From contig CAYLJX010000001.1 of the NCBI GenBank assembly GCA_964384235.1, forward strand, positions 86,792-150,791: 64,000 nt of DNA, written 5' to 3'. Both the position numbers and the translations under genes were made by a program. The notes under the pieces were generated by a model, which did not search any database, was not told the DNA's origin, and saw nothing but the letters and a program-made list of their open reading frames with translations. Positions 1,540-53,163 of this stretch are shown here, piece after piece. Numbering within the stretch: position 1 is the first letter of the stretch; each line of letters begins with the position of its first letter. The stretch comes from an uncultured Bdellovibrionales bacterium (GTDB taxonomy: Bacteria; Patescibacteriota; Minisyncoccia; Moranbacterales; UBA1568).

Positions 1540-1574
1540 GGCTGTAACGATAATTTCTACTGACAGTCCTGATT

Positions 1575-1775: not shown

Positions 1776-1840
1776 TTTGACCAACGACTCACGACCAACG
1801 ACAAGAAGATATATTCCTGTCGTACGTTGTAAGTTGTACG

Positions 1841-2419
1841 TTGTCGGTTGAAAACAAAATGGCCAATAGGCATCTTCAAAGATCGGTGGTGATGCAGTCC
1901 CTCTTTGAATGGGACTTCCAAGGGAAGCGCGACGAGATATCGCGCGAGATTCTCAGCCGCAACATCGAGGAATTCGCGCCTGGTATCGAGGACACCATCT
2001 TTGCCGAGCACCTGATGGAAGGAACGCTCCGCGAACGCAAAACCATCGACAAGCTCATCGAGAAGTGCGCTCCCGAGTGGCCGCTCGAGCAGGTGACGGT
2101 CGTGGACCGCAACATCCTCCGTCTCGGCATCTACGAGCTCATGTTCGGCAATTACGACGAGGTCCCGCCCAAGGTCGCCATCAACGAGGCGATCGAACTG
2201 GCCAAGTCGTTCGGGAGCGACTCGACGCCGCGCTTCGTGAACGGCGTCCTCGGGACGATCTATCGCGAGATGGGCGAGCCCATGAAGGACGACGTGTCCG
2301 AGAACCACAAGCGCAACCTGGAAAAGACCGCGCAAGAGAACGCGCCCAAGGAACCGAAGAAGCAAGAAACGAAAGAGAAGAAAACGGTAAAGAAAAGTAC
2401 CAAGAAAGAAAGCGCCTGA
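1841..2419 (+). CDS. nusB: Transcription antitermination factor NusB with a K/E-rich C-terminal tail
   Basis: NusB fold motifs 'LFEWDF...', '[11 protein letters not shown]', '[17 protein letters not shown]...RFVNGVLG'. Confidence 0.85.
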
Positions 2420-2439
2420 GCGCTTTTTTTGAAACCACT

Positions 2440-3141: not shown

Positions 3142-3175
3142 GACAAGGACTTAGCTTGTAGCTGGTAGCTTGTAG

Positions 3176-3204
3176 AAAGCGGCAAGGACCGCTTTTTCTT
3201 TTGG
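3176..3204 (+). terminator. Rho-independent terminator after rnc
   Basis: 'aaagcggcaaggaccgcttt' hairpin followed by 'ttcttttgg'. Confidence 0.55.
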
Positions 3205-3330
3205 CTTGTTTTCGGGTATACTGGTGGAAACAGTATACGGTATTATGTATGATGTATTAAGGGAACGCCCCGTGTGTTTTTCTGTATTTATACATGATAC
3301 GCAATACATGATACGTGATACCTCTTTAGA

Positions 3331-10968: not shown

Positions 10969-11499
10969 ATGTATCAATTGCTCCGAAAAATCTTCGTGAC
11001 CCCCAAGTTAACGATTCCCAAGGAAGAACTGCTCCAGGAAGATGTGGCCGTGATAGGGGAGAAGCTCGAGGCTTCCGTCCGAAAGCTTTTCAAGGGATCG
11101 CTTGCCATCCGCGAGGTGGCGGCCGGATCGAGCAATGCCGAGGAACAGGAACTCACGGCGCTCACCAATCCGTACTATGATATCGAACGTTTCGGCGTCC
11201 ATTTTGTCGCGTCTCCACGGCATGCCGATATGCTCTTCGTCACCGGTCCGGTCTCACGCAACATGGGGGAGGCGCTTAAGCGCACCTATGAGGCGATGCC
11301 GACTCCGAAGTACGTGGTAGCGGTGGGGGACGGCGCCATTGATGCAGGAGTGTACCGTGATTCCTATGCTGTCTACAACAGCGTGGCGGACGTCATTCCG
11401 GTCGATTTCAAGATTCCTGGTGATCCTCCTTCTCCCAAGACGGTCATGGCATCCCTTTTGAAGATCCTGGAAACGATTGATTCCGAAAAAACTCCCTAG
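10969..11499 (+). CDS. NuoB / [NiFe]-hydrogenase-small-subunit-like protein in which all four Fe-S (N2 cluster) cysteine ligands are replaced
   Basis: 'HFVASPRHADMLFVTGPVSRNMGEALKRTYEAMPTPKYVVAVGDGAIDAGVYRDSYAVYNSVADVIPVDFKIPGDPP' aligns to NuoB 'QSDLMVVAGT...[24 protein letters not shown]...[22 protein letters not shown]'. The CC, GAC and GCP cysteines are A/G, D and D here. Confidence 0.7.
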   Translation: MYQLLRKIFVTPKLTIPKEELLQEDVAVIGEKLEASVRKLFKGSLAIREVAAGSSNAEEQELTALTNPYYDIERFGVHFVASPRHADMLFVTGPVSRNMGEALKRTYEAMPTPKYVVAVGDGAIDAGVYRDSYAVYNSVADVIPVDFKIPGDPPSPKTVMASLLKILETIDSEKTP

Positions 11500-11513
11500 C
11501 CTCCTTCCTGCAT

Positions 11514-13571
11514 ATGATGGAATTCCTGCTTTCTTCAACTAGTATCCTTTTTCTGATCAGTCTTTTCCTGATCGGCGGTTTCGGGGCGCTGTTTCTGGAG
11601 CGCTTTTTCGATGACGGCGGCCGGATAGGGGGGATCTTCGCTCATGCGTTCGCGACGGCCGGATCGCTCCTGGGACTCGGGATCGCTTCCTCGGCCCTTC
11701 TGTCCGGACAGGGCATCAGTCTGCAGTTGCCGAGCGTCTTTCCTCTCTTCTCGTTCGCGTTCCGTCTCGACGGGCTTTCGGCGTTTTTCCTGGCGGTCGT
11801 GTCGCTCGTCGCCTTCGCCGCTTCCCTGTACGGTCTCTCGTATCAGAAACATTTCCTGGGTCAGTATCGTCTGGGACGCCTCGGCTTTTTCTACAATATT
11901 TTCGTCGGGAGCCTGATGCTGGTCACGCTTGCCAATCAGGGGCTTTTCTTCCTCTTCGTCTGGGAGATCATGTCGCTCGCGTCGTATTTCCTCGTCGTCT
12001 TCGAACATAAGAAGGATGAGAATATCCGCGCCGGCTTCCTGTACTTCCTCATGACGCACTTCGGGACCGTGTTCATCACGCTTGCGTTCTTCCTCGCGTA
12101 CCAGGCCACCGGATCGTTCCACTTCGATGTCTGGCGCGAATCCTTCGGGACGCTCTCGCCGACGGTGCAGGGACTGATCTATCTCTTCGTGCTCATCGGT
12201 TTCGGGACCAAGGCCGGTATCGTGCCCTTGCATATCTGGCTGCCCGAGGCGCATCCGGCCGCACCGTCCCATGTCTCCGCGCTCATGTCCGGCGTCATGA
12301 TCAAGACCGCGATCTTCATGTTCGTGCGGTTTTTCTTCGATTTCTTCCCGGGAGCATCGTACCAGTGGGGACTCGTCTTTCTGGTGCTCGGCGCCGTCGC
12401 GTCGCTTCTCGGTGTCCTGTACGCGCTTTCGGAGCATGACCTCAAGCGGCTTTTGGCGTATCACAGCGTGGAGAACATCGGTATCATCCTCTTGGGGTTC
12501 GGTGCTGCCGTCACTTTCTTCAGTCTGGGGCTTGAGAGCTTCGCCCTCTTCGCGCTCGCCGCATCGCTCTACCACACGATGAACCATGCCATCTTCAAAG
12601 CACTGCTCTTTTTGGGAGCAGGGTCGGTAGTTTCGGCCACCGGGACGCGTAATATGGAGGAGTACGGCGGACTGATCAAGCTGTTGCCGTTCACGTCGTT
12701 CTTCTTTCTCATCGGGTCGCTCGCCATCTCGGCCTTCCCGCCGTTCAACGGTTTCGCGAGCGAGTGGCTGACATTCCAGGCGCTCTTTGTCGGTATCGGA
12801 TCGGCCAGCATCCTGGTGAAGGCCGTTTTCATCGTCGCTATCGCGAGTCTCGCCTTTACTGGGGGGCTGGCGGCCGCCTGTTTCGTCAAGGCGTTCGGAG
12901 CGACATTCCTGGCCAAAGCGAGGAGTGCGGAGGTATCGCATGCGCATGAGGCAGCCCTTCCGATGCTCTTCGCGATGGGAGTGCTCGCGCTCCTGACGCT
13001 CGTTCTCGGCGTGTTCGCGACGTATGTGATCGCGGCCCTGGTCGCGGTCGTCGCGAGTATCGGACTCATCCAGCCGCAGACGCTCCAGTTCCCGTTCCTT
13101 GAGATCGTCTCGGCCCGGGACAACTTCGCTGACATCCTGCCGTTGGACCGGGTCGGATTCGCGCTGCTTCTCCTGCTGGTCCTCTCGATCGCCGTCGTCT
13201 CGTATCTGACGCGCCGCCGAAAAACCATCATCGGCAAGACGTGGGATTGTGGATATCCTCTCAATCCGCGTATGGAGATCACTGCGACGAGTTTCTCACG
13301 CTCGCTCATCACCATTTTCAAAGGCATCCTCAAGCCGACGAAACAGCATGATGTCGAGTACCATGACGAGAGCATGCGCTATTTCACCAAGGCAGAAGGC
13401 GTGACCCTCGGTTTCACGGACCTCTATCGCAAAGTCCTCTATCGTCCGCTGCACCGTATACTGCTTTTTTCCGCGACGCAGGCGAGACGGATCCAGGGAG
13501 GCAACATCAATGTCTATATCCTCTACGTGTTCGTCACCCTGATCGCGCTCCTTATCTGGTCCGCCCGCTAA
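11514..13571 (+). CDS. NuoL/MrpA/HyfB-like antiporter-type membrane subunit
   Basis: 685 aa, polytopic. 'FFLFVWEIMSLASYFLVVFEH', 'GIVPLHIWLPEAHPAAPSHVSALMSGVMIKTAIF', 'LLAYHSVENIGIILLGFG' are complex-I antiporter-like subunit motifs. Confidence 0.8.
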   Translation: MMEFLLSSTSILFLISLFLIGGFGALFLERFFDDGGRIGGIFAHAFATAGSLLGLGIASSALLSGQGISLQLPSVFPLFSFAFRLDGLSAFFLAVVSLVAFAASLYGLSYQKHFLGQYRLGRLGFFYNIFVGSLMLVTLANQGLFFLFVWEIMSLASYFLVVFEHKKDENIRAGFLYFLMTHFGTVFITLAFFLAYQATGSFHFDVWRESFGTLSPTVQGLIYLFVLIGFGTKAGIVPLHIWLPEAHPAAPSHVSALMSGVMIKTAIFMFVRFFFDFFPGASYQWGLVFLVLGAVASLLGVLYALSEHDLKRLLAYHSVENIGIILLGFGAAVTFFSLGLESFALFALAASLYHTMNHAIFKALLFLGAGSVVSATGTRNMEEYGGLIKLLPFTSFFFLIGSLAISAFPPFNGFASEWLTFQALFVGIGSASILVKAVFIVAIASLAFTGGLAAACFVKAFGATFLAKARSAEVSHAHEAALPMLFAMGVLALLTLVLGVFATYVIAALVAVVASIGLIQPQTLQFPFLEIVSARDNFADILPLDRVGFALLLLLVLSIAVVSYLTRRRKTIIGKTWDCGYPLNPRMEITATSFSRSLITIFKGILKPTKQHDVEYHDESMRYFTKAEGVTLGFTDLYRKVLYRPLHRILLFSATQARRIQGGNINVYILYVFVTLIALLIWSAR

Positions 13572-13586
13572 TTTTCCCGCATCCGT

Positions 13587-14558
13587 ATGAGTATCCTCAT
13601 CTTTCTCCTCCAACTGATCGTCGTGCCGGTTCTCTCACCGCTCTCTATCGGCATCGTCCGCAAGCTGAAGGCCCGGATGCAGAACCGCGTCGGCGCGAGC
13701 GTGTTCCAGCCGTACCGGGACCTGTGGAAACTCTTCCACAAAGACGAAGTCATCTCGGAGGATGCCTCCTGGATCTTCCGTTTTTCGCCGTATCTCATCT
13801 TCGCGGTCGTGCTCCTCATCGGGGCGGGGGTGCCCGTCGTGACGGCGCTCACCCCGTCGATCATCGCCGGGGACGGGGCTTCGGAATGGCTCTCGCTCCT
13901 TTCGGCGGGTGATTTTCTCGTCATCGTGTACCTCTTGGCGCTCGCGACATTCTTCCTGGCGCTTGGTGGGATGGAGACAGGGAGCGGTTTCGGAGGATTC
14001 GGCTCCAGCCGTGAGATGACCATGGCGGCGCTGACCGAGGGAGGACTCCTGTTCTCGCTCCTTTCCGTGTCCGTCGTCGCCCAGACGGGCAATGTCATGA
14101 CGATGGTGGAGAATCTCCAGCTCATGCCGTTTCAGGCCTTCCTGCCGCTTATCGTGGCGTTCTTCGCGTTCTACATCGCGCTCCTTTCCGAAAACGGTCG
14201 CTTCCCGGTGGACAACCCGGCGACCCATCTCGAGCTCACCATGATCCATGAGGCGATGATCCTTGAGTATTCCGGCAAGCGTCTCGCTCTTTTGGAGTGG
14301 GCGAGCTGGAGCAAGTTCCTCATCTTCGTCGTTCTGGGTGTCAACCTGTTCTTTCCGTGGGGGGTGGCGACGAGTCTGGAACCGAAAGTACTGCTTCTTT
14401 CAACGGTTTTCTTTGTGCTCAAGACCCTCGTGCTTTTGGGAAGCGTCGCGTTTCTCGAATCGACCATGGCGAAATTCCGCATTTTCCGCGTTCCGGATCT
14501 CCTGTTCACCTCGTTCGTTCTCGGTGTCATCGCCCTTGGCATCATCATAACCTTTTAG
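13587..14558 (+). CDS. NuoH/HycD/HyfC-like membrane subunit
   Basis: 'RKLKARMQNRVGASVFQPYRDLWKLFHKDEV' resembles the NuoH/HycD N-terminal 'RKxxARxQxRxGP...QPxADxxKLxxKE' motif; about 8 TM helices. Confidence 0.75.
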   Translation: MSILIFLLQLIVVPVLSPLSIGIVRKLKARMQNRVGASVFQPYRDLWKLFHKDEVISEDASWIFRFSPYLIFAVVLLIGAGVPVVTALTPSIIAGDGASEWLSLLSAGDFLVIVYLLALATFFLALGGMETGSGFGGFGSSREMTMAALTEGGLLFSLLSVSVVAQTGNVMTMVENLQLMPFQAFLPLIVAFFAFYIALLSENGRFPVDNPATHLELTMIHEAMILEYSGKRLALLEWASWSKFLIFVVLGVNLFFPWGVATSLEPKVLLLSTVFFVLKTLVLLGSVAFLESTMAKFRIFRVPDLLFTSFVLGVIALGIIITF

Positions 14559-14561
14559 TTT

Positions 14562-15218
14562 ATGGAATTTTCCGCTGAACTTTTCTTCTTTCTCGACCTG
14601 CTCGCGTTTCTCGCGGCGATCTTCATGCACCTCGTGAAGAAGAATGCCAACCTGATCCGGCTCTACGTGGCGCAGTCCCTTGCCGTTTCCGTGCTGCTCC
14701 TGGTCATCGGACTGAGCGAGGGGGAACAGAGTCTCATTTGGATCGCGGTGCTCACGTTCGCCATCAAGAGTGTCGCGGCCCCGGCCTTCTTTTTCCGCCT
14801 CATGCGGCGCTTCGGATCGCAGTTCACCGCGAGCAACTACCTCAATACCCCGCTCACGCTCCTCGTCTTGGCGGCCCTCATTATTCTTGCGTATTCCCGC
14901 GTCTTCCTGCCGCTCGGCACGCTCGTTCCGCAGGCGGTCGGGTATCTTTCTCTCACCCTCTCGATCGTCTTCGTATCGATATTCCTCATGATCAATCGCC
15001 GCGGGGCGTTCGCCCAGATGGTCGGCATCCTGTCACTCGAGAACGGTATCGTACTCCTGGCGGCCCTCATCGGTATACAGCAGCCGCTTGCCCTGGAAAT
15101 CGGCATCATCTTCGACATCGTCATCTGGATGGTCATCGCCAACGTGTTCATCGCCATGATCTATCGCCAGTTCGGTTCGCTCAACATCACCGAGCTTAAA
15201 CGTCTCACGGAAGATTAA
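14562..15218 (+). CDS. HyfE/NuoK-NuoJ-like small membrane subunit
   Basis: 218 aa, about 6 TM helices. Its size and operon position match hydrogenase-4 component E / Mrp-like small subunits. No catalytic motif. Confidence 0.55.
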   Translation: MEFSAELFFFLDLLAFLAAIFMHLVKKNANLIRLYVAQSLAVSVLLLVIGLSEGEQSLIWIAVLTFAIKSVAAPAFFFRLMRRFGSQFTASNYLNTPLTLLVLAALIILAYSRVFLPLGTLVPQAVGYLSLTLSIVFVSIFLMINRRGAFAQMVGILSLENGIVLLAALIGIQQPLALEIGIIFDIVIWMVIANVFIAMIYRQFGSLNITELKRLTED

Positions 15219-15223
15219 ACCCT

Positions 15224-16678
15224 ATGCAGCTCACGTTTCTCATCGCTTTGCCGCTTCTCGTCGTCTGTTTCATCGCGCTCCTGCAGGCGAGGCACGTCCG
15301 TTTCATCGAGGCGGCGGTCGTTCTCTCGGCCTTCGTCGAGTTCGGTCTCGCACTAGTGCTTCTCCCGTCGGTCCTCGCGAACGGGGCGGTGGCAGCCACC
15401 TCTTTCTTTTCGCTGGATGCCTTCGGGGCGTTCCTGTCGCTCATCATCGCGCTCGTCGGATTGTTTGTCAGTCTCTACTCCGTCGGGTACCTGCGGGCGG
15501 AAGTGACCAAGGGGATCATCGGTCTGCGGCGCGTCCGCCAGTACTATCTCCTCCTGGAGCTCTTCCTCTTCGCGATGATGCTCGCGGTCGCGACCATCAA
15601 TCCGGTCGTCATGTGGATCGCCATCGAGGCCACGACGCTCTCCACGGCGTTCCTCATCAGCTTCTACAACAAGCCTTCCGCGACGGAAGCGGCGTGGAAG
15701 TACCTCATCCTCAACTCCCTGGGACTGCTCCTCTCCCTCCTCGGAACGCTCATGTTCCTCGCCCTGCCGGAACTGAAAAGCGGCTCGCTCACCTGGGAGA
15801 ACCTGCGTGCCGCGGCGGGTGATTTCCATCCGCTCGCGGTCAAGGTCGCCTTCGTGTTCATCCTGGTCGGGTACGGGACCAAGGCCGGCCTGGTGCCGTT
15901 CCATACCTGGAAGCCGGATACCTATTCCAAGGCGCCGGCCCCGGTCGTCGCGCTGCTTTCCGGTGTCCTTCTCAACGTGGCGTTTTTCGCGATCATGCGT
16001 TTCAAGGGCGTGACGGATGCGGCGCTCCAGTCCGAATTCGCTGGGGGACTTCTCATCTTCTTCGGAACGCTGTCCGTGGCGCTCGCCGCACTCATCATTT
16101 TCATCCAGAAGAACTACAAGCGGCTCCTCGCCTATTCCAGCATCGAACATGCGGGACTCATCGCGCTCGGCTTCGGCTTCGGCGGTATCGGGACGTTCGC
16201 GGCCCTGCTCCACATGTTGTACCACTCGCTCACCAAGGCACTCCTCTTTTTCGGATCAGGAAACATCTTCCTCAAGTACAGCTCCACCAAGATGAAGAAC
16301 GTGACGGGCGTTCTCCAGGTATTGCCGGCGACGACGGTGCTGTTTTTTGCCGGGTTCATCGCGATCGCCGGACTGCCGCCTTTCGGAATATTCGTGTCCA
16401 AGATGCTCCTGCTTTCGGCTGGTATGGGCGAGCATCCGGTCCTGGTGGGTTTCATCCTGCTTTCCCTGGCGGTCGTCTTCTTCGGTTTCTTCCGGCATCT
16501 CACCGCGCTCCTCTTCGGTGAGCCGGCCCCGGGCATCGAGAAGGGGGAGATGCACATACTGACGCTCTTCCCGGTCTTTCTTCTGGCCGGACTGATCATC
16601 GTCTTGAGTTTCCACTTCCCTGCGGAACTGGAGCTGCTTATCGAGTCCGCGGCGGATAGTCTCTCGATCAAACCCTAA
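15224..16678 (+). CDS. NuoN/NuoM/HyfF-like antiporter-type membrane subunit
   Basis: 'GLVPFHTWKPDTYSKAPAPVVALLSGVLLNVAFFAIMRF', 'LLAYSSIEHAGLIALGFG'. Confidence 0.8.
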   Translation: MQLTFLIALPLLVVCFIALLQARHVRFIEAAVVLSAFVEFGLALVLLPSVLANGAVAATSFFSLDAFGAFLSLIIALVGLFVSLYSVGYLRAEVTKGIIGLRRVRQYYLLLELFLFAMMLAVATINPVVMWIAIEATTLSTAFLISFYNKPSATEAAWKYLILNSLGLLLSLLGTLMFLALPELKSGSLTWENLRAAAGDFHPLAVKVAFVFILVGYGTKAGLVPFHTWKPDTYSKAPAPVVALLSGVLLNVAFFAIMRFKGVTDAALQSEFAGGLLIFFGTLSVALAALIIFIQKNYKRLLAYSSIEHAGLIALGFGFGGIGTFAALLHMLYHSLTKALLFFGSGNIFLKYSSTKMKNVTGVLQVLPATTVLFFAGFIAIAGLPPFGIFVSKMLLLSAGMGEHPVLVGFILLSLAVVFFGFFRHLTALLFGEPAPGIEKGEMHILTLFPVFLLAGLIIVLSFHFPAELELLIESAADSLSIKP

Positions 16679-16683
16679 CGGCC

Positions 16684-18279
16684 ATGCCTATGTCTGAAAT
16701 GACGAACACTTCATTGGAACGCTACGGTCTGGGACGGCACCTCTCCGTTCGGAAAGGAAATCTCTCCCTGTTCGACGTGTCGGCGGAGGATCTGCCGGAA
16801 ACGGTGCAGACGCTCATGCACGAGCACAACCTCCCGCTCAAGACCGTCGTAGCGACCGACGAACGCAAAGAGGGAGGAGTCTTCCGTATCCGGTATGTCT
16901 TCGGTCTCCCCAAGCAGGACGGGTTTCTCGTCCCGGTCCTGTCCGTCGATCCGTACGTGCAGAGCTTTCCGTCGCTGGTCTCCGTCGATCAGGAGTTCGC
17001 CGTCTATGAACAGGAGATACAGACCTTCTTCGGACTGGAACCCCTGGGGCATCCGCGTCCCGGTCGCATCCTGCTCCACGGGGAAAACTTTCCTGCGGAC
17101 TGCCATCCGCTTCGGAAGGACTTCGCTTGGAATACGAATGTCGAGGCACCGAAAGAAAAAATCCTTCCGACATTCAGGAAGTTCGAGGGTGAGGGAGTGT
17201 ATGAGATTCCTGTCGGACCGGTCCATGCCGGGATCATCGAGCCGGGACATTTCCGTTTCAGCGTCTTGGGTGAGGAAATCCTCCGTCTCGAGCCGCGTTT
17301 GGGCTACGTGCACAAGGGGACCGAGAAACTATTTGAGACGCTGCCTCTAGATCAGAAGCTCCGGCTTTCGGAGCGTGTTTCCGGTGACAGTTCCTTCCAT
17401 CACGCGCTCGCTTTCGCCCAGGCGATCGAGACGCTTGCGGGAGTCGCGGTGCCGGATCGGGCCAGATTCCTGCGGACGGTGTACGCCGAACTCGAGCGCC
17501 TCGCCAATCATTTCAATGATCTTGCCTTCATCATGCTCGATACCGGTTTCAGCTTCGGTGGCAGTCAGGGGACGCGCCTGCGGGAACGGGTGATGCGGTG
17601 GAACGAGAGGCTGACCGGGAGCCGGTTCCTGCGAGGAGTGGTCGCTTTCGGCGGCGTGACGAAGGATCTCGATGAAAAAATGATCGATGAGCTGCAGGAC
17701 GATCTCGAACTTTTGGAAAAGGATTTCCAGGAAGTGATCGATGCGACCAAGGAGACCGACTCGCTCCTTAACCGACTCAAAGGGACGGGAACGCTCTCAT
17801 CCCAGGTGGCCCGGGATCACGGGGCGGTGGGTATCGCCGCGCGGGCCGTCGGCGAAGAAACGGACGCCCGGGCCGACTATCCCTATGCCGCCTACGAAGA
17901 GGTTCAGTTCAGTGTCCCGACGGAAGAGAGCGGGGACGTCTATGCCAGATATCGGGTGCGTATCCGTGAGGTACACCAGTCCTTCCGTATCCTCAATCAG
18001 GCGCTTACGCTTCTCACTCACCAGCCGGCACCGATCGTCTCGGGATTGCCCAAATTCCCTGCGTCCTCCATGGCGCTCGGGGTCGTCGAGGGATGGCGTG
18101 GAGATATCGTGTATTTTGTGGCGACGGACGCCGAAGGCAACATCTCGCGTGTCAAAGTGCGCGACCCCTCCTTCCTCAACTGGCAGCTTTTCCCGTACGT
18201 CGTGACCAATGACATGGTGCCGGACTTCCCTTTGATCAACAAGAGTTTTAACCTCTCCTATACCGGAAACGACCTCTAG
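16684..18279 (+). CDS. Fused NuoC-NuoD-like / hydrogenase-large-subunit-like protein without NiFe-binding cysteines
   Basis: The N-terminal third is NuoC-like. Then 'VGPVHAGIIEPGHFRFSVLGEEILRLEPRLGYVHKGTEKLFE' resembles NuoD 'GPQHPAAHGVLRL...HRGTEKL'. Positions that hold RxCGxC and DPCxxC in [NiFe] hydrogenases read 'LGYVHKGTEK' and 'DPSFLNWQ'. Confidence 0.75.
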   Translation: MPMSEMTNTSLERYGLGRHLSVRKGNLSLFDVSAEDLPETVQTLMHEHNLPLKTVVATDERKEGGVFRIRYVFGLPKQDGFLVPVLSVDPYVQSFPSLVSVDQEFAVYEQEIQTFFGLEPLGHPRPGRILLHGENFPADCHPLRKDFAWNTNVEAPKEKILPTFRKFEGEGVYEIPVGPVHAGIIEPGHFRFSVLGEEILRLEPRLGYVHKGTEKLFETLPLDQKLRLSERVSGDSSFHHALAFAQAIETLAGVAVPDRARFLRTVYAELERLANHFNDLAFIMLDTGFSFGGSQGTRLRERVMRWNERLTGSRFLRGVVAFGGVTKDLDEKMIDELQDDLELLEKDFQEVIDATKETDSLLNRLKGTGTLSSQVARDHGAVGIAARAVGEETDARADYPYAAYEEVQFSVPTEESGDVYARYRVRIREVHQSFRILNQALTLLTHQPAPIVSGLPKFPASSMALGVVEGWRGDIVYFVATDAEGNISRVKVRDPSFLNWQLFPYVVTNDMVPDFPLINKSFNLSYTGNDL

Positions 18280-19443: not shown

Positions 19444-20247
19444 TCACATCCAGCGAGTGATGACGAAGACGTAGGCGGCGACGAGGACCCAGAATGACCA
19501 GAGGAAGAAACGTCGGCCCCTGTTCCGCAGGACCTCGTCCTGCATGACTTCCTTGGTGGTGATGCCGAAGCTCTTGAAGATGAAGGTGGATTCGAAGAGA
19601 CGGACGATGACGACCCAGGCGAGGAACATGCCGACATATAATCCGAGTCCCGGTATGTTCGGGCGGGCGAGCTCCGGGGTGGGATTGCCGCCGCCGACTT
19701 TCAGCCACTTCATCCACCCGGCCCACTTCATGTTAAAGACATGGATGATCGTGAGGAGAACGACGAGACGGAGTCCCCAGCGCTGCATGAACCACCAACG
19801 CTTGGCACCGAGAAGCGCTATAGCCTTTTTGAACGAAATGAGGAAGAGAAAGACGAGAAGCGCGATGCCGACGAGTCCCGCGGCGAACTCGAGCGAAGCG
19901 AGTGATACTTTGGAGTGGGGGAACTTGAGCGGGAGGAAGAAGTACGAGACGATCACATGGCCGAGGAGGACGAACGTGGCGACGATGCCGATCTCCTTGC
20001 GAAGGCCGAGCCAGTTGTCGAAGCGATCGAAATAGCGCGCGATCGGCCCGATGAGGAAGACGAGGGAGAGCATCACCGTCCCGGTGCCAGCCAGGGCCTT
20101 GTTGGGGACGTAGAGCACGTCGGCGGTCGGTGGCGCGTCGAAGAAGTAGCCACGCCGGAACAGGAGGTAGAGACTGAAAAACCCGAAAAGGGCGGCCGCG
20201 ATGAGGATCGCGATGAGATAGTCCCGCAGACTCGACGGCTTATGCAT
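19444..20247 (-). CDS. Polytopic membrane protein, possibly with a ferric-reductase-like/MsrQ-like haem-binding TM domain
   Basis: Six or seven TM helices with conserved His in the helices ('LLGHVIVSYFF', 'TIIHVFNMKW'). Lies immediately upstream of the VIT1 gene. The family call is tentative. Confidence 0.35.
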   Translation of the reverse strand: MHKPSSLRDYLIAILIAAALFGFFSLYLLFRRGYFFDAPPTADVLYVPNKALAGTGTVMLSLVFLIGPIARYFDRFDNWLGLRKEIGIVATFVLLGHVIVSYFFLPLKFPHSKVSLASLEFAAGLVGIALLVFLFLISFKKAIALLGAKRWWFMQRWGLRLVVLLTIIHVFNMKWAGWMKWLKVGGGNPTPELARPNIPGLGLYVGMFLAWVVIVRLFESTFIFKSFGITTKEVMQDEVLRNRGRRFFLWSFWVLVAAYVFVITRWM

Positions 20248-20451
20248 AAGTTTTTTGTTTCTTTGTCGGATTAGCTGTATTATATATCAAACACGCTGAA
20301 ACGTATAAAAGTGTCGTTTTGAGTTTGTAAAGTCTGTAAAGTTCATAAAGTCTATAAAGTGTCTGGTCCTTGCTTTACGAACTTTAAAAACTTGATAAAC
20401 TTTATAGACTAGCCTGCCTTTTGAAGGAAAAGACCTTTAGAGAGCCATTTC

Positions 20452-20539: not shown

Positions 20540-20983
20540 ATGTCTGTCAAAGTTACGCAGCGTCCGGAGTACACCGGAAAGTATTCCGCTATCGATGGCA
20601 TGGCTCAGGAAGGAAGAGTTCTGATTCAGAGAGAAGGGGATGACGGGCATCCGGCTTTTCATGCGGGGCCTACATATCCATCCAAGCTTCCTATCCGTTC
20701 CGATGTGCAGAAGCTTCTCGACATGTCGGACGACGACTTCGAGAGGTGGTACAAGGCTCGCCAGCTGGCGATCGTGTCCGAACTCAACAAGTGGAAGCTG
20801 ATCGGAGATGTCCCTCATCTTACATATCCTGCTGAGGATCAGCGGTGGACGTTTGGATCAGCCGTCACCGCCTTCAAGCAAGTTACCGAGACGCTTCAGC
20901 AAGCTTTGAAGCACCTCGAGGTCATCAAGGCCAGGCGGGGAGACATCATCAAGTCCGAGAAAGAGCAACCCGTTCTTCCTTGA
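20540..20983 (+). CDS. Hypothetical protein (147 aa from MSVKVT)
   Basis: RBS 'gagaggagagtgaagATG'; no family recognised. Confidence 0.45.
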   Translation: MSVKVTQRPEYTGKYSAIDGMAQEGRVLIQREGDDGHPAFHAGPTYPSKLPIRSDVQKLLDMSDDDFERWYKARQLAIVSELNKWKLIGDVPHLTYPAEDQRWTFGSAVTAFKQVTETLQQALKHLEVIKARRGDIIKSEKEQPVLP

Positions 20984-22511: not shown

Positions 22512-22600
22512 AGGTAATTGCTGATTGAAGATTTGAGATTGATGAGTTGGAAAATGATTACGAATCAGAAATTTGCAATCGTAAATCTAAAATCTGCAAT

Positions 22601-33980: not shown

Positions 33981-34193
33981 ATGGAACATGAGGAAGCGGA
34001 GTTTTATTTGAAACCGGGACAGAAAGTGGTGGCATACGGCGATCCAAGGCTCTTGGCTCAGGGTATCCAGGAAGGAGAACAGGGCACTGTGAAGGAGGGT
34101 CGGGGTTTGAGCTTCTATGCCGTAAGTTTTCAGCACGGCGAACGCACCGTGGTAGCTTTCTGTTATGCCGGCTGGATACATCCCATCCAGTAG
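33981..34193 (+). CDS. Hypothetical small protein (70 aa)
   Basis: Has its own TTGACA promoter (33908-33936), RBS 'agggggatggcATG', and a terminator at 34224-34258. No family recognised. Confidence 0.35.
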   Translation: MEHEEAEFYLKPGQKVVAYGDPRLLAQGIQEGEQGTVKEGRGLSFYAVSFQHGERTVVAFCYAGWIHPIQ

Positions 34194-34223
34194 CATGACG
34201 GACAACGTGTAAAAGGGTCTGGT

Positions 34224-34258
34224 GATGCGTCTAACGCCAGACCCCTATTTTTTCAGGG
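34224..34258 (+). terminator. Rho-independent terminator
   Basis: 'gggtctggtgatgcgtctaacgccagaccc' followed by 'ctatttttt'. Confidence 0.55.
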
Positions 34259-34277
34259 ATTTCGTGGACGCATACGA

Positions 34278-34304
34278 TTAGCACTCTCATGTTGAGATTG
34301 CTAA
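34278..34304 (+). promoter_or_regulatory. CIRCE element (HrcA operator) upstream of clpB
   Basis: 'TTAGCACTCtcatgttgaGATTGCTAA' against the consensus TTAGCACTC-N9-GAGTGCTAA (one mismatch). Confidence 0.6.
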
Positions 34305-34335
34305 TTTTTTGTTTTTGTGATAAATTGAGTCCATA

Positions 34336-34387
34336 AAGTGGAAAGTCTAAGTGGAAAGTCTAAGTGGAAAGTCTAAGTGGAAAGTCT
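34336..34387 (+). repeat. Four perfect tandem copies of the 13-bp unit 'AAGTGGAAAGTCT'
   Basis: Direct tandem repeat between the CIRCE element and the clpB promoter. It carries the same 'AAAGTC' core as the boxes at 34383-34457 and 20322-20410. Confidence 0.8.
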
Positions 34388-34457
34388 ATAAAGTTTATCA
34401 AGTACTATATACAAAGGACTTTCTTGGCTTTATTGAACTTTACAGACTTTACAAACT
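34383..34457 (+). promoter_or_regulatory. Putative operator: box1 'AGTCTATAAAGTTTATCAAGT' and box2 'GAACTTTACAGACTTTACAAACT' (heptad direct repeats), overlapping the clpB -35/-10 (TTGAAC-18-TATTAA)
   Basis: Both boxes recur with the same order and orientation relative to the minus-strand VIT1 operon, at 20322-20344 and 20390-20410. Confidence 0.45.
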
Positions 34458-34463
34458 ATTAAT

Positions 34464-37115
<2,652 letters not shown>

Positions 37116-37146
37116 ATCAGGAATAATAAGTCCCGAAAAAAAGAAC

Positions 37147-37176
37147 CTCTTCTAAGGTTCTTTTTCGATATGATAT
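37147..37176 (+). terminator. Rho-independent terminator after clpB
   Basis: 'aaagaacctcttctaaggttcttttt'. Confidence 0.55.
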
Positions 37177-37240
37177 AGTAAAAAAGAAGGATTTTTCTTC
37201 GTCATGATTCTCAATTCTTGATTCCTGATTCTTCTCCAAA

Positions 37241-42102: not shown

Positions 42103-43214
42103 AGATCGCGATTCAAGCTTCCGATCTTGATGCGCAGAGGATCGACGGGACGAGGGTGTATCTCAAGGAACTGCTCAGACGGTTCGGGACGTTGTCACCT
42201 GAGACGGATTTTTTCCTCTATCACAAGCATACTTTCAATCCTGTCCTGGAGCCGCCGAAGTTTCAGAATTATGAGGAGCGGGCGATTCCCTTTCCTAAGG
42301 CATGGATGCAGACGAGATTCGCATGGGAGATGTTTCGTACCCGTCCGGACAAACTTTTTCTCCCGATCCAAGCCGCGCCGCTCTTTCTTCCTTCCGGGAC
42401 GGACGTGACGGCGACCATCCATGACCTCGCCTTCAAACGGTATCCTGAGACGTTCCCGAAAGATCATCTCCGGAAACTCAACTTTCTCCTCGATGTCGTC
42501 GTGAAACGTGCAGACAAGCTCATTGCCGTTTCTGAATCGACCAAACGGGACCTTTTGGAATTTTTCCCCAAACTTTCCGAGGATAAGATCCGTGTTATTC
42601 ATCACGGCTTCGATGGCGACTTTTTCGGGAAAAGGCTCTCCTCGGAAGAAATTTCCGAAGAGCTCGAAAGCTACAAGCTACCAGCTACCAGCTATATCCT
42701 TTATGTCGGTGCCCTCCAGCCTCGTAAGAATCTCATCCGTCTCATTGAAGCGTTCAATATTGCCAAGAAGAGCGTACCTGACATGAGGTTGGTTCTTGCT
42801 GGTGAACCGGCTTGGCTCTCGGAGGGTATTCTCCAAGCGAGAGAGAAGAGCCCGTACAAAGACGATATCATTCTGACCGGGAGAGTCTCATTCAAGGATC
42901 TGCGTGCGTTGTATCAGGGTGCGAGATTCTTCGTGTTCCCGTCGCTCTACGAGGGGTTCGGTCTGCCGCTCCTCGAAGCGTTCGCTTCCGGGACACCGGT
43001 CCTCACCGCCGACAACTCAAGTCTCTCCGAAGTGGCCGGCCGCGGCGCGCTCTATTGCGACGCGCAGAGTGTCGAGGACATGGCCGAAAAAATGGAGCGC
43101 CTCTGGAAGGACGAAACGCTCCGAAACGGACTCGTCGAGCGTGGCACGGACCGTCTCAAGGGTTTCTCCTGGGACACATGCGCCAAAGAGACGCTGGAAT
43201 ATATTCTCAGGTAG
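42099..43214 (+). CDS. GT4-family glycosyltransferase
   Basis: 'ILYVGALQPRKNLIRLIEAF', 'FVFPSLYEGFGLPLLEAFASGTPVLTADNSSLSEVAG'. Confidence 0.85.
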   Translation: MKIAIQASDLDAQRIDGTRVYLKELLRRFGTLSPETDFFLYHKHTFNPVLEPPKFQNYEERAIPFPKAWMQTRFAWEMFRTRPDKLFLPIQAAPLFLPSGTDVTATIHDLAFKRYPETFPKDHLRKLNFLLDVVVKRADKLIAVSESTKRDLLEFFPKLSEDKIRVIHHGFDGDFFGKRLSSEEISEELESYKLPATSYILYVGALQPRKNLIRLIEAFNIAKKSVPDMRLVLAGEPAWLSEGILQAREKSPYKDDIILTGRVSFKDLRALYQGARFFVFPSLYEGFGLPLLEAFASGTPVLTADNSSLSEVAGRGALYCDAQSVEDMAEKMERLWKDETLRNGLVERGTDRLKGFSWDTCAKETLEYILR

Positions 43215-47730: not shown

Positions 47731-47807
47731 AGAATCCGTTTGCTCTGGTGGTGAATCTTGTCTACAATGGAGGTGAAAGCCGGCCGGTTGGTCGGTGGTT
47801 TGTCTAT

Positions 47808-50264
47808 ATGATGAGCGAGAATTTTTTCCTTTGGTACTACACGGACGGGATGCGACAGGCGTTCATGCTTGTGAAAAATGCCGTGCGTTTCGTCATTTTC
47901 CGTTTCCATATCGTCCCGCTTCTCTTCACGCTTTTTTCACCGTGGAAGCGCGATATCGAGTTCCGGACATGGCGGGGACTGCACCCGCTCAAGTCCCTGA
48001 GTGCATTGTTCGGAAACTTCATCTCGCGTTTCTTGGGAATGATCGTCCGTCTCGGGGTGATCGCTTTCGGGACGGTCCTGCTGATCGCGACGTGCTGTAT
48101 CGCGGCCACTTTGTTTCTCGCGTACGCGCTCTCGCCGCTTTGTATCAGCATCGGCCTCATCTCGTTTTTCATCAATCCGATCCTGGGGTCCGGACTGCTT
48201 CTTTTCGGGGCGGTCGGATTTCTTATGGCACTCTTCGGGTTCGTCTCCCGGAAACAGACGGAACCACAGACGTACGATGTGACGATCCTCAAGGAGCGAC
48301 GGTGGTTCCAGCGGGTGCTTGCACGGCTCGGTATCGATCGGAAGACACTCGATGCATCGGTCTTGAAGGATACCGAGACTCTGGTGAAATATCTCGAGGG
48401 TCTGGGGATGTCCCGGACGCTCTTCGAACAGGTGGTCCGTATCGAGCGGGAAGCGTTCGAACGTCGCGACCACAAAGGACGCTTTTGGCTGTGGGAGAAT
48501 CTCGAGAAGTATCCGCCTATCGGCAAGGGGTGGGCTTTCGCTTATACTCCTCACTTGGATCGGTATGTGCTCGACCTTTCGGCGGGCGATCCGACGGAGT
48601 ACGGTCGGTACGAACTTGTCGGACGACAGGAGGAATTCCGCGTCGCCAAACTTATCCTGGAACGTCCGGTACAGAACAGTTTCCTCTTGGTCGGCGATCC
48701 GGGACTGGGCAAGAAGACGTTCGTCCATTACCTGGCACGGAAGATCCGGGAGAACGCCATGGCCGGCAGTGTGATCGGTGACGCGCGGGTTCTCCTCTTC
48801 GATCTCGGTCGGGCGGTCGGTGACGCGACGAGCCATGATGTCGATCCGGAACATTACCTCCGACCGCTTTTTCATGAGGCGGCCTACGCTGGAAACGTCA
48901 TCCTCGTCATCGATCAGATCGATCTCTTTCTCGGGGGAGATCCCGTTCATCCGAATCTCGCGCCGCTCTTCTCGGAATATCTGGCATTGCCGACGTTTAG
49001 GGTGATCGGGATGGCGACGACTGAGCGCTATCACGCTCTGGCCAAGACTGACGAACAAGCGCTTAAGTTTCTTGAGACGATCTATCTGCGCGAACCGGAG
49101 CCGGACGAAACGCTGGCGATCCTTCTGGATAACCATGAGCGACTCGAGCGGAAAAGGGTTGTTTTTACTCTTGCGGGGCTGCGATCGATCGTCGAGACGG
49201 CCGGCCGGTATGATTGGGAGGTGCCTTTTCCGGAACGCGCCCTCGACCTGGCTCAGGAAGTCCTCCTGTTTTTCCGTGAACGGCCGGAGCCCTTCGTGAC
49301 ACCGGAAACGGTGAATGCCTTCGTCTCGCTCAAGACGGGCGTGCCGACCGGAGCGATCGGCGGCGACGAGAAGGAAAAGCTCCTTCATCTCGAGGAGCTC
49401 CTGCACGAGCGTATCGTCGGACAGGAAGAGGCGGTGAAACAGGTGGCGGAAGCCATGCGCAAGGCACGAGCCGGCTTCGGGAACGACAAGAAGCCGCTCG
49501 GGAGTTTCTTGTTTCTTGGTCCGACCGGCGTCGGGAAGACCGAGACAGTGAAGGCCTTTGCGGAGAGCTATTTTGGTGACGAGGAGAAGATGATCCGGCT
49601 CGATATGAGCGAGTACCAGAACCCGGGCGCCGTGGAGCAACTCATCGGTTCCCGGGCGCTTGGGTTGCAGGGGACGCTCACTAGTGCCGCCAAGGAACAG
49701 CCGTTCTCGATCTTGCTGCTTGATGAACTCGAGAAGGCCTATCCTAAAGCGCTTGACCTCTTCTTGCAGATCCTGGATGAGGGGTTCGTGACGGACGCCT
49801 TTGGTGAGAGGGTGAGTTTCCGCAATATGATCATCGTCGCCACCTCCAACGCCGGGGCGCCGCTCATCCGGTCGCTCATCGCAGAGAAGGCACCGCTTGC
49901 GGACATGCGCAGACGGGTACTCCAGGAGATCGTGGACAAGAATCTTTTTCGGTTGGAATTCCTCAATCGTTTTGATGGTGTGATCTTCTTCGCGCCGCTT
50001 CAGGAGAATGAACTGAAACAGGTGACAGAACACCAGTTGGAACGGTTCGCCGAGCGTCTGAAAAAGGAAAAGAACATCACGCTCCGGTTCGCGCCCGGCG
50101 TGGTGGACGCGGTGGTGACGCACGGGTATGAGCCGGAGTTCGGGGCCCGTTCCGTCTTCCGGTATATCGAGGATACGATCGAGGACGCGGTCGTCAAGAA
50201 AATCATTGCCGGCGAGATCGCGTCGGGAGGCGAGCTTCTTATTTCCACTGACGAGTTCAATTGA
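47808..50264 (+). CDS. Membrane-anchored two-domain Clp/Hsp100-like AAA+ ATPase (N-terminal 4-TM segment; degenerate D1 Walker B; canonical D2). Alternative GTG start at 47748.
   Basis: TM helices at about residues 20-160. D1 'LLVGDPGLGKKTFVHYLARKI' with 'VILVIDQIDLF'. D2 'HERIVGQEEAVKQVAEAMRKARAGF...GSFLFLGPTGVGKTE', 'ILLLDELEKAYPKALDLFLQILDEGFVTDAFGERVSFRNMIIVATSN'. Confidence 0.7.
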   Translation: MMSENFFLWYYTDGMRQAFMLVKNAVRFVIFRFHIVPLLFTLFSPWKRDIEFRTWRGLHPLKSLSALFGNFISRFLGMIVRLGVIAFGTVLLIATCCIAATLFLAYALSPLCISIGLISFFINPILGSGLLLFGAVGFLMALFGFVSRKQTEPQTYDVTILKERRWFQRVLARLGIDRKTLDASVLKDTETLVKYLEGLGMSRTLFEQVVRIEREAFERRDHKGRFWLWENLEKYPPIGKGWAFAYTPHLDRYVLDLSAGDPTEYGRYELVGRQEEFRVAKLILERPVQNSFLLVGDPGLGKKTFVHYLARKIRENAMAGSVIGDARVLLFDLGRAVGDATSHDVDPEHYLRPLFHEAAYAGNVILVIDQIDLFLGGDPVHPNLAPLFSEYLALPTFRVIGMATTERYHALAKTDEQALKFLETIYLREPEPDETLAILLDNHERLERKRVVFTLAGLRSIVETAGRYDWEVPFPERALDLAQEVLLFFRERPEPFVTPETVNAFVSLKTGVPTGAIGGDEKEKLLHLEELLHERIVGQEEAVKQVAEAMRKARAGFGNDKKPLGSFLFLGPTGVGKTETVKAFAESYFGDEEKMIRLDMSEYQNPGAVEQLIGSRALGLQGTLTSAAKEQPFSILLLDELEKAYPKALDLFLQILDEGFVTDAFGERVSFRNMIIVATSNAGAPLIRSLIAEKAPLADMRRRVLQEIVDKNLFRLEFLNRFDGVIFFAPLQENELKQVTEHQLERFAERLKKEKNITLRFAPGVVDAVVTHGYEPEFGARSVFRYIEDTIEDAVVKKIIAGEIASGGELLISTDEFN

Positions 50265-50309
50265 CGGAGAAGTTACTTCTCTTCTTTTTCTACTCACTAC
50301 TCACTGTTT

Positions 50310-51485: not shown

Positions 51486-52708
51486 AATTGCTTCTTATCA
51501 AAATCGGCAAGGCGTGGCATACGCTCCGACGCGAAGGGTTGGTCCGGGGCGGCCGGCGTGTCCTGACCGCGTTTCTCGCGCTCTTCGGACGGGTGAAGCC
51601 GGGCGATATCCTCTTCATCACGGGCGGGGTGGGGGACAGCGCGCGGTATCGATGCCAGCACGTGGCGGAAGAACTCGAACAGCATGGTTTTCGGACGGCG
51701 GTGACGGTGCAGGATAATCCGTTCCTTGCTTCGTATGCCGATCGGTTTTCGATTTTTGTGTTCCATCGAGTTCTCTTTACGCCGAGTGTCGCCAAACTTG
51801 TCGGACGGATCAAGGAGAAACAGAAAACGATCATCTTCGAAACGGACGATCTCGTCTATGACAAGGCGTTCCTTCAGCATATGGACTACTTCAGGCAGAT
51901 GAATACGTTCGAGCGCAAGCTCTACGAGAACGGCGTGGGCGGGGAGATCTTGGCCGATCCGTACGTGGAGGTCTGCACGACATCGACGACGTACCTCGCG
52001 AACAAGCTGCGGGAGAAAGGCAAACGGGTGTATATCGTTCCGAACAAGCTTTCAAAAGAGGACGTTGCAAATGTTGAAAAGATCCTCTCTTCTTGTCATT
52101 CCGACCGTAGTGGAGGAATCTCGAGATCCCTCGGCGATGCTCGGGATGACACGGTAGTGCGCGTCAGCTATCTTTCCGGCACGCCGAGTCACAACAAGGA
52201 TTTCGCGACGATCACGGACGCGCTCGCGACGCTTTTGGAAAAGTATCCGAACCTCCGTCTGGTGCTGGCTGGGCCGCTCGATACCGATGATCGGTTGCAG
52301 CATTTCGCCTCACAGATCGAGCGCCTGCCCTACGTGCCGCGTCGGGAATACTTCGGAAATGTCGCCCGGATGGATATCAATGTCGCACCCCTTGAGATCG
52401 GCAATCCCTTTTGTGAGTCGAAGTCCGAGCTCAAGTTTTTCGAAGCAGGTATCTGCGGCGTGCCGACGGTGGCCGCGGCGACACAGACCTTTCGTGAGGC
52501 GATCCGGGACGGCGAGGACGGGTTCGTCGCGAGCAATACCGAAGAATGGCGAGACAAGATCGAACGATTGATCGTCGATGCTGATTTACGAAAGACAATG
52601 GGGCAGAGAGCCCGCGAAACAGCCTCTGAAAAATACACGACGACAAGCGCGAAGAACGAAGCATACTATGAATATCTAAGATCATCGGTTAACCGGCTAA
52701 AAAGTTAA
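51482..52708 (+). CDS. Glycosyltransferase (GT1/GT4-like C-terminal domain)
   Basis: 'LRLVLAGP', 'INVAPLEIGNPFCESKSELKFFEAGICGVPTVAAATQTFREAIRDGEDGFVA'. The start ATG overlaps the upstream stop (ATGA). Confidence 0.7.
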   Translation: MKLLLIKIGKAWHTLRREGLVRGGRRVLTAFLALFGRVKPGDILFITGGVGDSARYRCQHVAEELEQHGFRTAVTVQDNPFLASYADRFSIFVFHRVLFTPSVAKLVGRIKEKQKTIIFETDDLVYDKAFLQHMDYFRQMNTFERKLYENGVGGEILADPYVEVCTTSTTYLANKLREKGKRVYIVPNKLSKEDVANVEKILSSCHSDRSGGISRSLGDARDDTVVRVSYLSGTPSHNKDFATITDALATLLEKYPNLRLVLAGPLDTDDRLQHFASQIERLPYVPRREYFGNVARMDINVAPLEIGNPFCESKSELKFFEAGICGVPTVAAATQTFREAIRDGEDGFVASNTEEWRDKIERLIVDADLRKTMGQRARETASEKYTTTSAKNEAYYEYLRSSVNRLKS

Positions 52709-52721
52709 CAGGTTAACAGGT

Positions 52722-53117
52722 TTGAATATGAAGATCAACCGATTTGAAGATTTGAATGTATGGAAATCGAGTGTTGGTTTAACAAAGACGATTTATGATC
52801 TTACAGCAAAAGAAAAGTTCTCTAGAGATTTTGGTTTGCGAGATCAGATTCGGAGAGCAGTAGTCTCGATAAGTTCGAACATCGTAGAAGGATTTGAAAG
52901 AAGTAGTAATAATGAGTTTATACGATTTTTAAAAATAGCTAAGGGTTCGGCAGGAGAAGTAAGGAATCAACTTCATATTGCTTATGCGGTAGGATATATG
53001 ACGGAAAAGGAATTCGACGAGGTTTATGAGGAAGTTGAACTGTTGACGAAGCAAATTGGAGCATTCGTGAATTACTTGGAAAGCAAGAGGCTATCCGGAG
53101 AATTCGTAAGAAAATAA
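52722..53117 (+). CDS. Four-helix-bundle protein (23S-rRNA-intervening-sequence protein family), low-GC
   Basis: 131 aa 'FEDLNVWKSSVGLTKTIYDLT...VSISSNIVEGFER...AKGSAGEVRNQLHIA' matches the family signature. Flanked by GTTAAC-rich spacers. Confidence 0.65.
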   Translation: MNMKINRFEDLNVWKSSVGLTKTIYDLTAKEKFSRDFGLRDQIRRAVVSISSNIVEGFERSSNNEFIRFLKIAKGSAGEVRNQLHIAYAVGYMTEKEFDEVYEEVELLTKQIGAFVNYLESKRLSGEFVRK

Positions 53118-53163
53118 AAACCCGTTAGCCTTTTAACTTGTTAACTGATTAACTGAAAATTAT

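Follow-up and report, generated by a model that had tools for sequence, protein, structure and literature searches.

We analysed the region upstream of clpB in a 64,000-nucleotide stretch of genomic DNA (the window) from an uncultured Patescibacteria lineage. The gene probably has a class I heat-shock promoter, the kind controlled by the repressor HrcA through the operator CIRCE (controlling inverted repeat of chaperone expression), followed by a leader that is filled by a generic repeat. HrcA bound at CIRCE would block RNA polymerase, and protein-folding stress would release HrcA and allow clpB transcription from about position 34333. The leader of about 131 nt would then be almost wholly one inverted tandem-array element, its left arm lengthened by a fourfold duplication of 13 nt. 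We regard this element as a likely passenger, arisen by insertion or slippage, whose influence on mRNA structure or stability would be modest and non-specific at most. Translation would begin without a Shine-Dalgarno (SD) sequence at an AU-rich, mostly unpaired AUG, as it would for most genes of the window. Arrays of this class have short units (7-9 nt) and are often arranged as inverted pairs; they are plentiful in this genome, differ between close relatives and are widespread in other genomes.

The operator and predicted promoter of clpB

The window ClpB is 82-67% identical to proteins source-labelled Candidatus Moranbacteria, and the gene order HtrA, clpB, DUF5656, HtrA, HisRS is common to the window and contigs with that label. 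The features around the start of the gene are as follows.

34215-34253, plus strand: intrinsic-terminator-like hairpin, GGGTCTGG / CCAGACCC then TTTTTT, 8/8 complementary, 14-nt loop
34278-34304, no strand assigned: CIRCE (HrcA operator), TTAGCACTC-N9-GATTGCTAA
34298-34303, plus strand: predicted -35 hexamer TTGCTA in the right CIRCE arm
34318-34326, plus strand: predicted extended -10, TGaTAAATT, 17 nt past the -35
34331-34335, plus strand: predicted transcription start, about 34333, placed from the position of the -10
34457-34463, plus strand: TATTAAT abutting the ATG, -10-like but unusable for an mRNA containing ATG 34464
34464-37115, plus strand: clpB, 883 aa, full-length, with Clp_N, AAA, AAA_lid_9, AAA_2 and ClpB_D2-small domains

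A preliminary description of this DNA had proposed a near-consensus CIRCE with one mismatch, and that call is well supported. The site, TTAGCACTC-TCATGTTGA-GATTGCTAA, departs once from TTAGCACTC-N9-GAGTGCTAA and keeps 17 of the 18 consensus positions. With up to three mismatches allowed, the window contains no other match, and 100 shuffles give an expectation of 0. It lies 160 nt 5' of the clpB ATG, overlaps a conserved -35-like hexamer, and is kept at the orthologous position in all eight Moranbacteria-like loci examined, that is, the window and seven more (L082, L083/84, L085-87, L088, L209, L210 and L211; ClpB identity 77-82%). The alignment of the eight orthologs is ungapped from CIRCE to about 25 nt past it. 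It follows the pattern TTRGCACTCTC-N5-GAGATTGCYAA, N17, TGnTAnnnT, in which the motif positions are invariant: the fixed columns read TT-GCACTCTC ... GAGATTGC-A, then a T-rich 17-nt spacer, then TG-TA---T, and 3' of that there is no conservation. The single departure from the consensus, G to T in the right arm (GAG to GAT), is itself fixed in 8/8 loci.

HrcA binding and the promoter roles are our reading of this pattern. The right CIRCE arm, GATTGCTAA, appears to double as the -35 hexamer TTGCTA, which would explain why the lone non-consensus base is invariant. Across the orthologs the predicted -35 is TTGCTA or TTGCCA, and the predicted -10 is TGGTATATT in most relatives, with TGaTATTTT also occurring. 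Other promoters of the form TTGACA-N17-TAnnnT are seen in the window. The distance from CIRCE to the ATG is 86-159 nt in the orthologs, and the leaders of L210 and L211 are only about 25 nt. CIRCE is also found directly 5' of clpB in five other loci of the candidate phyla radiation (CPR), where it lies 3' of a TTGACA-N17-TATACT-type promoter. On the other side of the operator, the hairpin at 34215-34253 belongs to an upstream open reading frame (ORF) of 70 aa (33981-34193); our terminator scanner accepts loops of up to 8 nt and hence missed it.

A putative -10 beside the ATG had led the preliminary description to a leaderless or near-leaderless clpB mRNA. This we reject. TATTAAT ends 1 nt before the ATG and cannot be a -10, because a start some 6-8 nt downstream would fall inside the ORF, and the ClpB N-terminus begins at ATG 34464 as it does in relatives. 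The motif is not conserved in the orthologs. The hexamer correctly placed for a leaderless start is TACAAA/CAAACT and has no -35, the scanner finds no promoter-like site (at least 9/12 matches) in the clpB leader, and no promoter adjoins the ATG in any clpB ortholog examined. The conserved promoter lies about 130 nt upstream. The clpB start has no SD sequence, which is normal for this genome because only 10 of the 52 window genes have an SD-like motif. An upstream ORF coupled to clpB, from GTG 34351 to TGA 34467 (ATGA overlap), was also considered, and we treat it as a by-product of the AT-rich repeats. Comparable short reading frames that stop at the ATG or beside it can likewise be traced in L082, L083, L085 and L088, without consistent starts or ribosome-binding sites, and the L210 and L211 leaders have no room for one. 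In a separate CPR lineage, the Patescibacteria contig L001 (region 2294-2324) carries a CIRCE, CTAGCACTC-N9-GAGTGCTAA, that ends 1 nt before the clpB ATG with TTGACA just upstream; a truly leaderless, CIRCE-controlled clpB is plausible there from the sequence.

No hrcA, dnaK or groEL was found in the window. Sources labelled Patescibacteria are rich in short HrcA proteins (PF01628). Seeding a search with a CPR HrcA gave proteins of Magasanikbacteria-like and Parcubacteria-like type, of which none could be traced to the contig that the window comes from. One CPR-like, Magasanikbacteria-like contig, L187 (region 1830-2650), encodes a short HrcA (225 aa, PF01628) 3' of TTGACG-N17-TGGTATATT; a variant CIRCE there, TTATCACTC-N9-GAGTGATAA, also precedes the gene and overlaps the -10. 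The leader of this hrcA also carries an inverted repeat, AATCCTGATTTACGGAT ... ATCCGTAATCCGTAAGT.

The repeat element in the leader and its relatives

Between the predicted promoter and the ATG lies the repeat element, identified from its inverted repeats, a second copy in the window and a homologue in L088. Its parts and its nearest relatives in the window are listed here; strand is given for the two rows that have one.

34328-34457: inverted tandem-array element filling the leader
34328-34400: left arm, AGTCCATAAAGT..., with 9-mers AGTCTATAA/AGTTTATCA, from the inverted-repeat search
34336-34387, plus strand: four copies of AAGTGGAAAGTCT, a lineage-specific tandem amplification within the left arm
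34417-34457: right arm, GACTTTCTT GGCTTTATTG AACTTTACAG ACTTTACAA ACT, from the inverted-repeat search
34436-34453, plus strand: the 'heptad boxes', ACTTTACAG ACTTTACAA, which are terminal 9-nt units of the right arm
20322-20420: second copy of the element, between divergent promoters of two ORFs
37093-37233: sister element, [GAATCAT]n / [ATGATTC]n, hairpin z-score -4.8

The repeats listed in the preliminary description are present and far above chance. Four perfect tandem 13-mers occur (TRF: 4.1 copies, 100% match, score 106), as do the two heptad boxes, AACTTTACAGACTTTACA, in which ACTTTAC appears twice at a 9-nt period. The 13-mers carry GAAAGTC on the plus strand and the boxes carry the reverse complement, GACTTT, so the 'shared core' of the two is an inverted repeat. 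The element has terminal inverted repeats: an 18-nt stretch closing the 13-mer array (34378-34395) shows 89% complementarity to the boxes (34436-34453), and a second pair spans 27 nt at 74% complementarity. Tandem 9-nt units occupy 34381-34409 and 34436-34457, and the whole can be written [AGTYYRTAA]n - spacer - [RACTTTAYR]n, with the right arm ending 6 nt before ATG 34464. The earlier suggestion that the 13-mers are additional sites for the factor that binds the boxes keeps one half: the two are related, the 13-mers being the amplified left arm of the element to which the boxes also belong, and nothing indicates a common factor.

The 13-mer array is not an assembly artefact, because independent assemblies are identical with four copies: L212 and L213, two assemblies from other samples, match the window over the whole spacer. 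Five short-read contigs (L214-L217 and L219, from different runs) are identical to the window until they stop exactly 30 nt into the array. The array breaks k-mer assemblies, and copy number is thus unreadable from short-read contigs. As to the copy-number variation raised earlier, there is none among the three assemblies that span the array, and L088 supplies a difference: its clpB leader has a homologous element with one 13-mer equivalent (AGTCCATACAGTGTAAAGTTCACAAG), which marks the fourfold array as a recent, local amplification. L082 and L085 have another unit, ATGATTC, at the same place in the leader, L083 has no clear array, and the L210 and L211 leaders have neither such an element nor arrays. 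Since relatives differ in the element or are without it, it is not a conserved part of clpB control. By eye, neither window copy shows a flanking target-site duplication, and no partner transposase was identified, although no search aimed at one was made. We also set aside a DnaA-box or origin reading: AGTGGAAAG matches 7/9 positions of TGTGGAAAA, and the cumulative GC skew increases steadily and does not switch around 34 kb.

The second copy lies between a 267-aa membrane ORF (19444-20247, minus strand) and a 147-aa ORF (20540-20983, plus strand), upstream of both promoter-like sites and not over them. The exact 18-mer of the boxes recurs there at 20326-20343 on the other strand. Aligning the two window copies gives two identical blocks, one of 21 nt (AGTCTATAAAGTTTATCAAGT) and one of 24 nt (TGAACTTTACAGACTTTACAAACT); the sequence that separates and flanks these blocks is unrelated. 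The 20.3-kb copy has 3.7 tandem copies at 20328-20360 and a hairpin z-score of -4.2 on either strand. In the sister element at 37.1 kb, [GAATCAT]n overlaps the clpB stop and is followed by a terminator and a promoter-like site, then by [ATGATTC]n, which ends 8 nt before the next ATG (37241). This element is absent from L083 and L088, where the two genes lie 4 nt apart.

Arrays of period 7-9 are common in the window, with 21 in 64 kb (0.33/kb) vs 0.06/kb in 80 unrelated clpB loci, and nearly all are confined to intergenic DNA, which makes up about 8% of the window. Examples are 20-98, 1779-1852, 3152-3175, 3235-3325, 22520-22600, 37093-37233, 50290-50305, and 52698-52722 together with 53133-53156. 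Many form inverted pairs: [TGTATCA]n / [GATACAT]n at 20-98 and 3235-3325, GACCAAC/GTTGTAC, and [GTTAACAG]n / [CTGTTAAC]n, which brackets a gene at 52722-53117. Hairpin z-scores of the window arrays run from about -2 to -7, and from -4 to -7 for four folded regions. One array, TTAACTTG TTAACTGA TTAACTGA at 53133-53156, lies just before ATG 53164 and contains the heptamer TAACTGA; contig L103 has arrays of the same kind, TGAATAAC. AAGCTAC is repeated four times inside a glycosyltransferase coding sequence (42667-42696), an array conserved in L083 (12124-12151), and its complementary unit TAGCTTG forms the intergenic array at 3152-3175. Arrays of other units stand just 5' of clpB in an unclassified bacterium (L008, 1153-1440: [CATTTTAA] x 9.6 and [AATGTTAA] x 3.5) and in a Phycisphaerales metagenome-assembled genome (L061, 1690-2990: [CAGAATT] x 3.9).

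Beyond the window, a ACTTTAYRRACTTTAYRRACT scan for ACTTTAYRR arrays returned more than 120 metagenome contigs (L089-L208) with GC contents of 25-59%; this and the counts that follow are among the matches listed. Arrays reach about 18 units. Among clusters of at least four units, 35 are one-armed; of the two-armed copies, 25 have the order AAAGT...ACTTT vs 2 the opposite order, with spacers of 4-77 nt that often contain a GC-rich hairpin. Elements in other contigs start AGTC... and finish ...GACT. Carriers include the Magasanikbacteria-like contig L187 and, from the Flavobacteriaceae, contig L110; the Obg of L110 shares 94% identity with named proteins of that family. The genes downstream of 35 arrays are functionally diverse. 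From their N-termini we take array-downstream genes to be rplK, rpmG, secY, groEL, obg, ftsE and rsmH, of which only obg and groEL were checked further. Because the unit recurs genome- and metagenome-wide at unrelated genes, the boxes are not a heat-shock operator, and we discarded a box-defined heat-shock regulon, the genes downstream of those 35 arrays being unrelated in function. In contig L115, an inverted array of the ACTTTAYRR type (about 932-1035) forms a 103-nt insertion in a 23S rRNA gene (641-3398). It replaces a 5-nt hairpin loop of the bacterial large-subunit rRNA at model position ~283 and resembles an intervening sequence or expansion segment.

Other observations in the window concern its coding regions. 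In the region 1859-3141, the domain of a 410-aa 'RNase III' ORF begins no earlier than residue 200. It is overlapped in another frame by an ORF (ATG 1859 to 2419) that starts 9 nt past an array; the region is probably two genes or a frameshift, not one long RNase III. A second Clp/Hsp100-like ORF (47748-50264, 838 aa, GTG start) overlaps a long antisense ORF. Pfam covers its second AAA module only (AAA_2, ClpB_D2-small), with no Clp_N or first AAA detected. At 10969-18279 there is a complex-I/Mrp-like cluster with Oxidored_q6, two Proton_antipo_M, NADHdh and a fused 30-kDa/49-kDa subunit. The set is reminiscent of a membrane-bound hydrogenase-type module, which seems unusual for a genome of this group.

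Weighing the role of the repeats

We favour a passenger element because there is no CtsR box, no Rfam family, weak folding and ordinary accessibility of the AUG. The whole clpB leader folds no better than its shuffles (z -0.57). The core arms fold weakly (z -2.3), with 16/18 positions able to pair. The region from -20 to +12 is predicted to be about 60% unpaired at 37 C, vs 0.55 +/- 0.11 with a shuffled upstream part, and its predicted probability of being unpaired goes from 0.47 at 15 C to 0.65 at 55 C, the same as in shuffled-upstream controls. Rfam searches at the gathering threshold and at E<=1 gave chance-level matches only. On these grounds an RNA thermometer or otherwise structured leader seems unlikely.

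A bolder proposal treats the 9-mer boxes as arms of an undescribed, widespread family of inverted tandem arrays with fixed inward polarity, either mobilised by an unknown enzyme or serving as structure-based post-transcriptional punctuation, which in the clpB leader would add an RNA-level layer to HrcA control. We hold this as possible but doubtful. The reach of such a family may take in leaders, gene boundaries and 23S rRNA loops in SD-poor Patescibacteria and in Flavobacteriaceae.

A narrower RNA-level role, in which the arms pair as an AU-rich zipper that acts as a thermosensor for AUG access or as a site of RNase III processing or stability and would supplement HrcA with post-transcriptional heat control, seems to us unlikely. 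Both arms would lie on the predicted leader and pair at the 16/18 positions given above, sister elements fold far beyond their shuffles (z -4 to -7), a 23S rRNA loop tolerates an element of this type as an inserted hairpin, and an RNase III gene is present in the window. However, the folding of the leader itself is weak, its AUG region is no less accessible than in the shuffled-upstream controls and has an ordinary temperature dependence, no Rfam family matches it, and L210, L211 and L083 are without such arms. The arms at 20.3 kb and 37.1 kb flank promoter-like sites and would therefore not share one transcript.

The arrays might instead replace the ribosome-binding site in an SD-poor organism, AU-rich arrays 5-10 nt before the AUG recruiting ribosomes through S1 or a cold-shock-type protein. 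A ribosome-recruiting role was proposed for the TAACTGA heptamer arrays of Beggiatoaceae, which are reported at the same placement (PMC4679880). In the window an array ends 5-10 nt before the SD-less starts of clpB and five other genes, and SD-like motifs are scarce, as noted. In the metagenomes, arrays lie 0-50 nt before ORFs that we read from their N-termini, and not from database assignments, as rplK, rpmG, secY, groEL and obg. Against this, the arrays show no strand bias toward the downstream gene (ACTTTA-sense 32 vs TAAAGT-sense 26, of 133, among the matches listed), the units are many and different, most SD-less genes of the window have no array, and clpB orthologs without arrays exist. 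Short intergenic regions also make closeness to a start codon partly unavoidable. We find this role improbable too.

Least credible is the scheme of the preliminary description, in which HrcA and a second, CtsR-like repressor acting on the boxes and 13-mers would jointly control a leaderless or near-leaderless clpB mRNA made from an ATG-adjacent promoter. Dual control of chaperone genes by CtsR and HrcA does exist in staphylococci, regularly spaced direct repeats of a 7-nt core do resemble the architecture of a CtsR operator, the boxes recur at a second promoter region (20.3 kb), and L001 offers a plausible leaderless clpB in another CPR lineage; but RGTCAAA-NAN-RGTCAAA has no match at up to three mismatches in 34200-34470 (window-wide, 4 vs 4.2 expected), the TATTAAT geometry and the promoter-free leader stand as described, L210, L211 and L083 do not have the boxes and L082 and L085 carry unrelated heptads in their place, the unit adjoins unrelated genes in either orientation and in distant phyla, and at 20.3 kb the element covers neither promoter-like site, which together make the scheme very improbable.

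Several points weigh against an HrcA-controlled promoter followed by a passenger repeat. No HrcA domain was detected among the ORFs scanned in the 64-kb window. The window promoter has 8/12 consensus positions plus the TG, which is below the threshold of the promoter scanner, and the start site and the roles given to the -35 and -10 are predictions that rest on consensus and conservation. As for the repeat, selection for a function is also compatible with the 21-24-nt identity between the window copies and with the element being kept in both the window and L088. A passenger leaves the fixed polarity of the arms unexplained. It likewise leaves unexplained why arrays end 5-10 nt before the SD-less ATGs of clpB, smc, the DUF5656 gene and the genes at 50310, 52728 and 53164, a spacing that hints at a role in translation initiation.

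Comparison with known systems

Taken together, our results indicate that the regulatory core belongs to an established type of system, here in a new host, and that the repeat class is the more interesting lead. The promoter-operator design is conserved, would serve heat-shock control in an uncultured Patescibacteria lineage, and would extend HrcA/CIRCE control to clpB there. Such a design, with its proposed overlap of operator and -35, can help to predict regulons in unculturable organisms. Conspicuous tandem or heptad repeats beside genes in such genomes should not be read as gene-specific operators. The array class, with its fixed polarity, its position near SD-less starts and its occurrence in both CPR and Flavobacteriaceae, merits a dedicated census.

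The clpB operator shares with class I CIRCE/HrcA systems (Bacillus subtilis dnaK and groE; Mollicutes clpB, lon and dnaK) the 9-bp inverted repeat, the 9-nt spacer and the location at a chaperone promoter. In B. subtilis, CIRCE sits just downstream of the -10, and in the CPR loci L002, L004, L010 and L011 it likewise lies just 3' of the -10. In the window, by contrast, the operator is 5' of the predicted start and its right arm would be the -35, which would fix one non-consensus base. The host also differs, being a member of the Patescibacteria with no hrcA seen within the 64-kb window. Control of clpB by HrcA has itself been documented in Mollicutes (PMC5138195).

The CtsR operator of Firmicutes clp genes is also built of direct repeats of a 7-nt core 5' of a clp gene. 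However, the window sequence is unrelated to it, and the period is 9 nt and not 10 nt. The window repeats form long inverted arrays 3' of the predicted promoter; they lack conservation among orthologs and are also seen beside unrelated genes. RNA thermometers such as ROSE and fourU resemble the clpB leader in being AU-rich heat-shock leaders with potential pairing near the start, but this leader has no Rfam match, no SD sequence to mask, and an AUG accessibility equal to that of shuffled controls.

Among mobile and dispersed repeats, the nearest are repetitive extragenic palindromic sequences and bacterial interspersed mosaic elements (REP/BIME), Correia elements, RUP/BOX and miniature inverted-repeat transposable elements (MITEs). 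Like these, the element is about 100-130 bp long with inverted ends, inserts in intergenic regions and leaders, would be co-transcribed with genes, can form hairpins and is present or absent among relatives. The inverted ends and the patchy presence suggest MITE-like behaviour. Its arms, however, are tandem 9-nt arrays and not unique terminal repeats. Unlike MITEs and REP-type sequences, the clpB-leader element has only two copies in 64 kb, and its unit is also found in distant phyla.

The closest parallels are the long simple sequence repeats (LSSR) of 5-11 nt, which include the TAACTGA arrays and the cyanobacterial heptamers known as short tandemly repeated repetitive (STRR) sequences. TAACTGA heptamer arrays occur in Beggiatoaceae, Cyanobacteria and Bacteroidetes just 5' of SD-less starts, with function unknown, and comprise 169 direct sets and one indirect set (PMC4679880). 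Both groups consist of short tandem units, mostly intergenic, a few nucleotides before SD-less starts and in several phyla, and the window itself has TTAACTGA repeats at 53133-53156. The 13-nt array falls outside the 5-11-nt LSSR range, yet it is built from the left arm of the element. The window differs in holding several coexisting unit families, usually as inverted pairs of fixed polarity, in having CPR carriers, and in having arrays that can enclose a terminator together with a promoter-like site. For the TAACTGA arrays, PMC4679880 does not describe inverted pairs of fixed polarity, coexisting unit families or occurrence in CPR.

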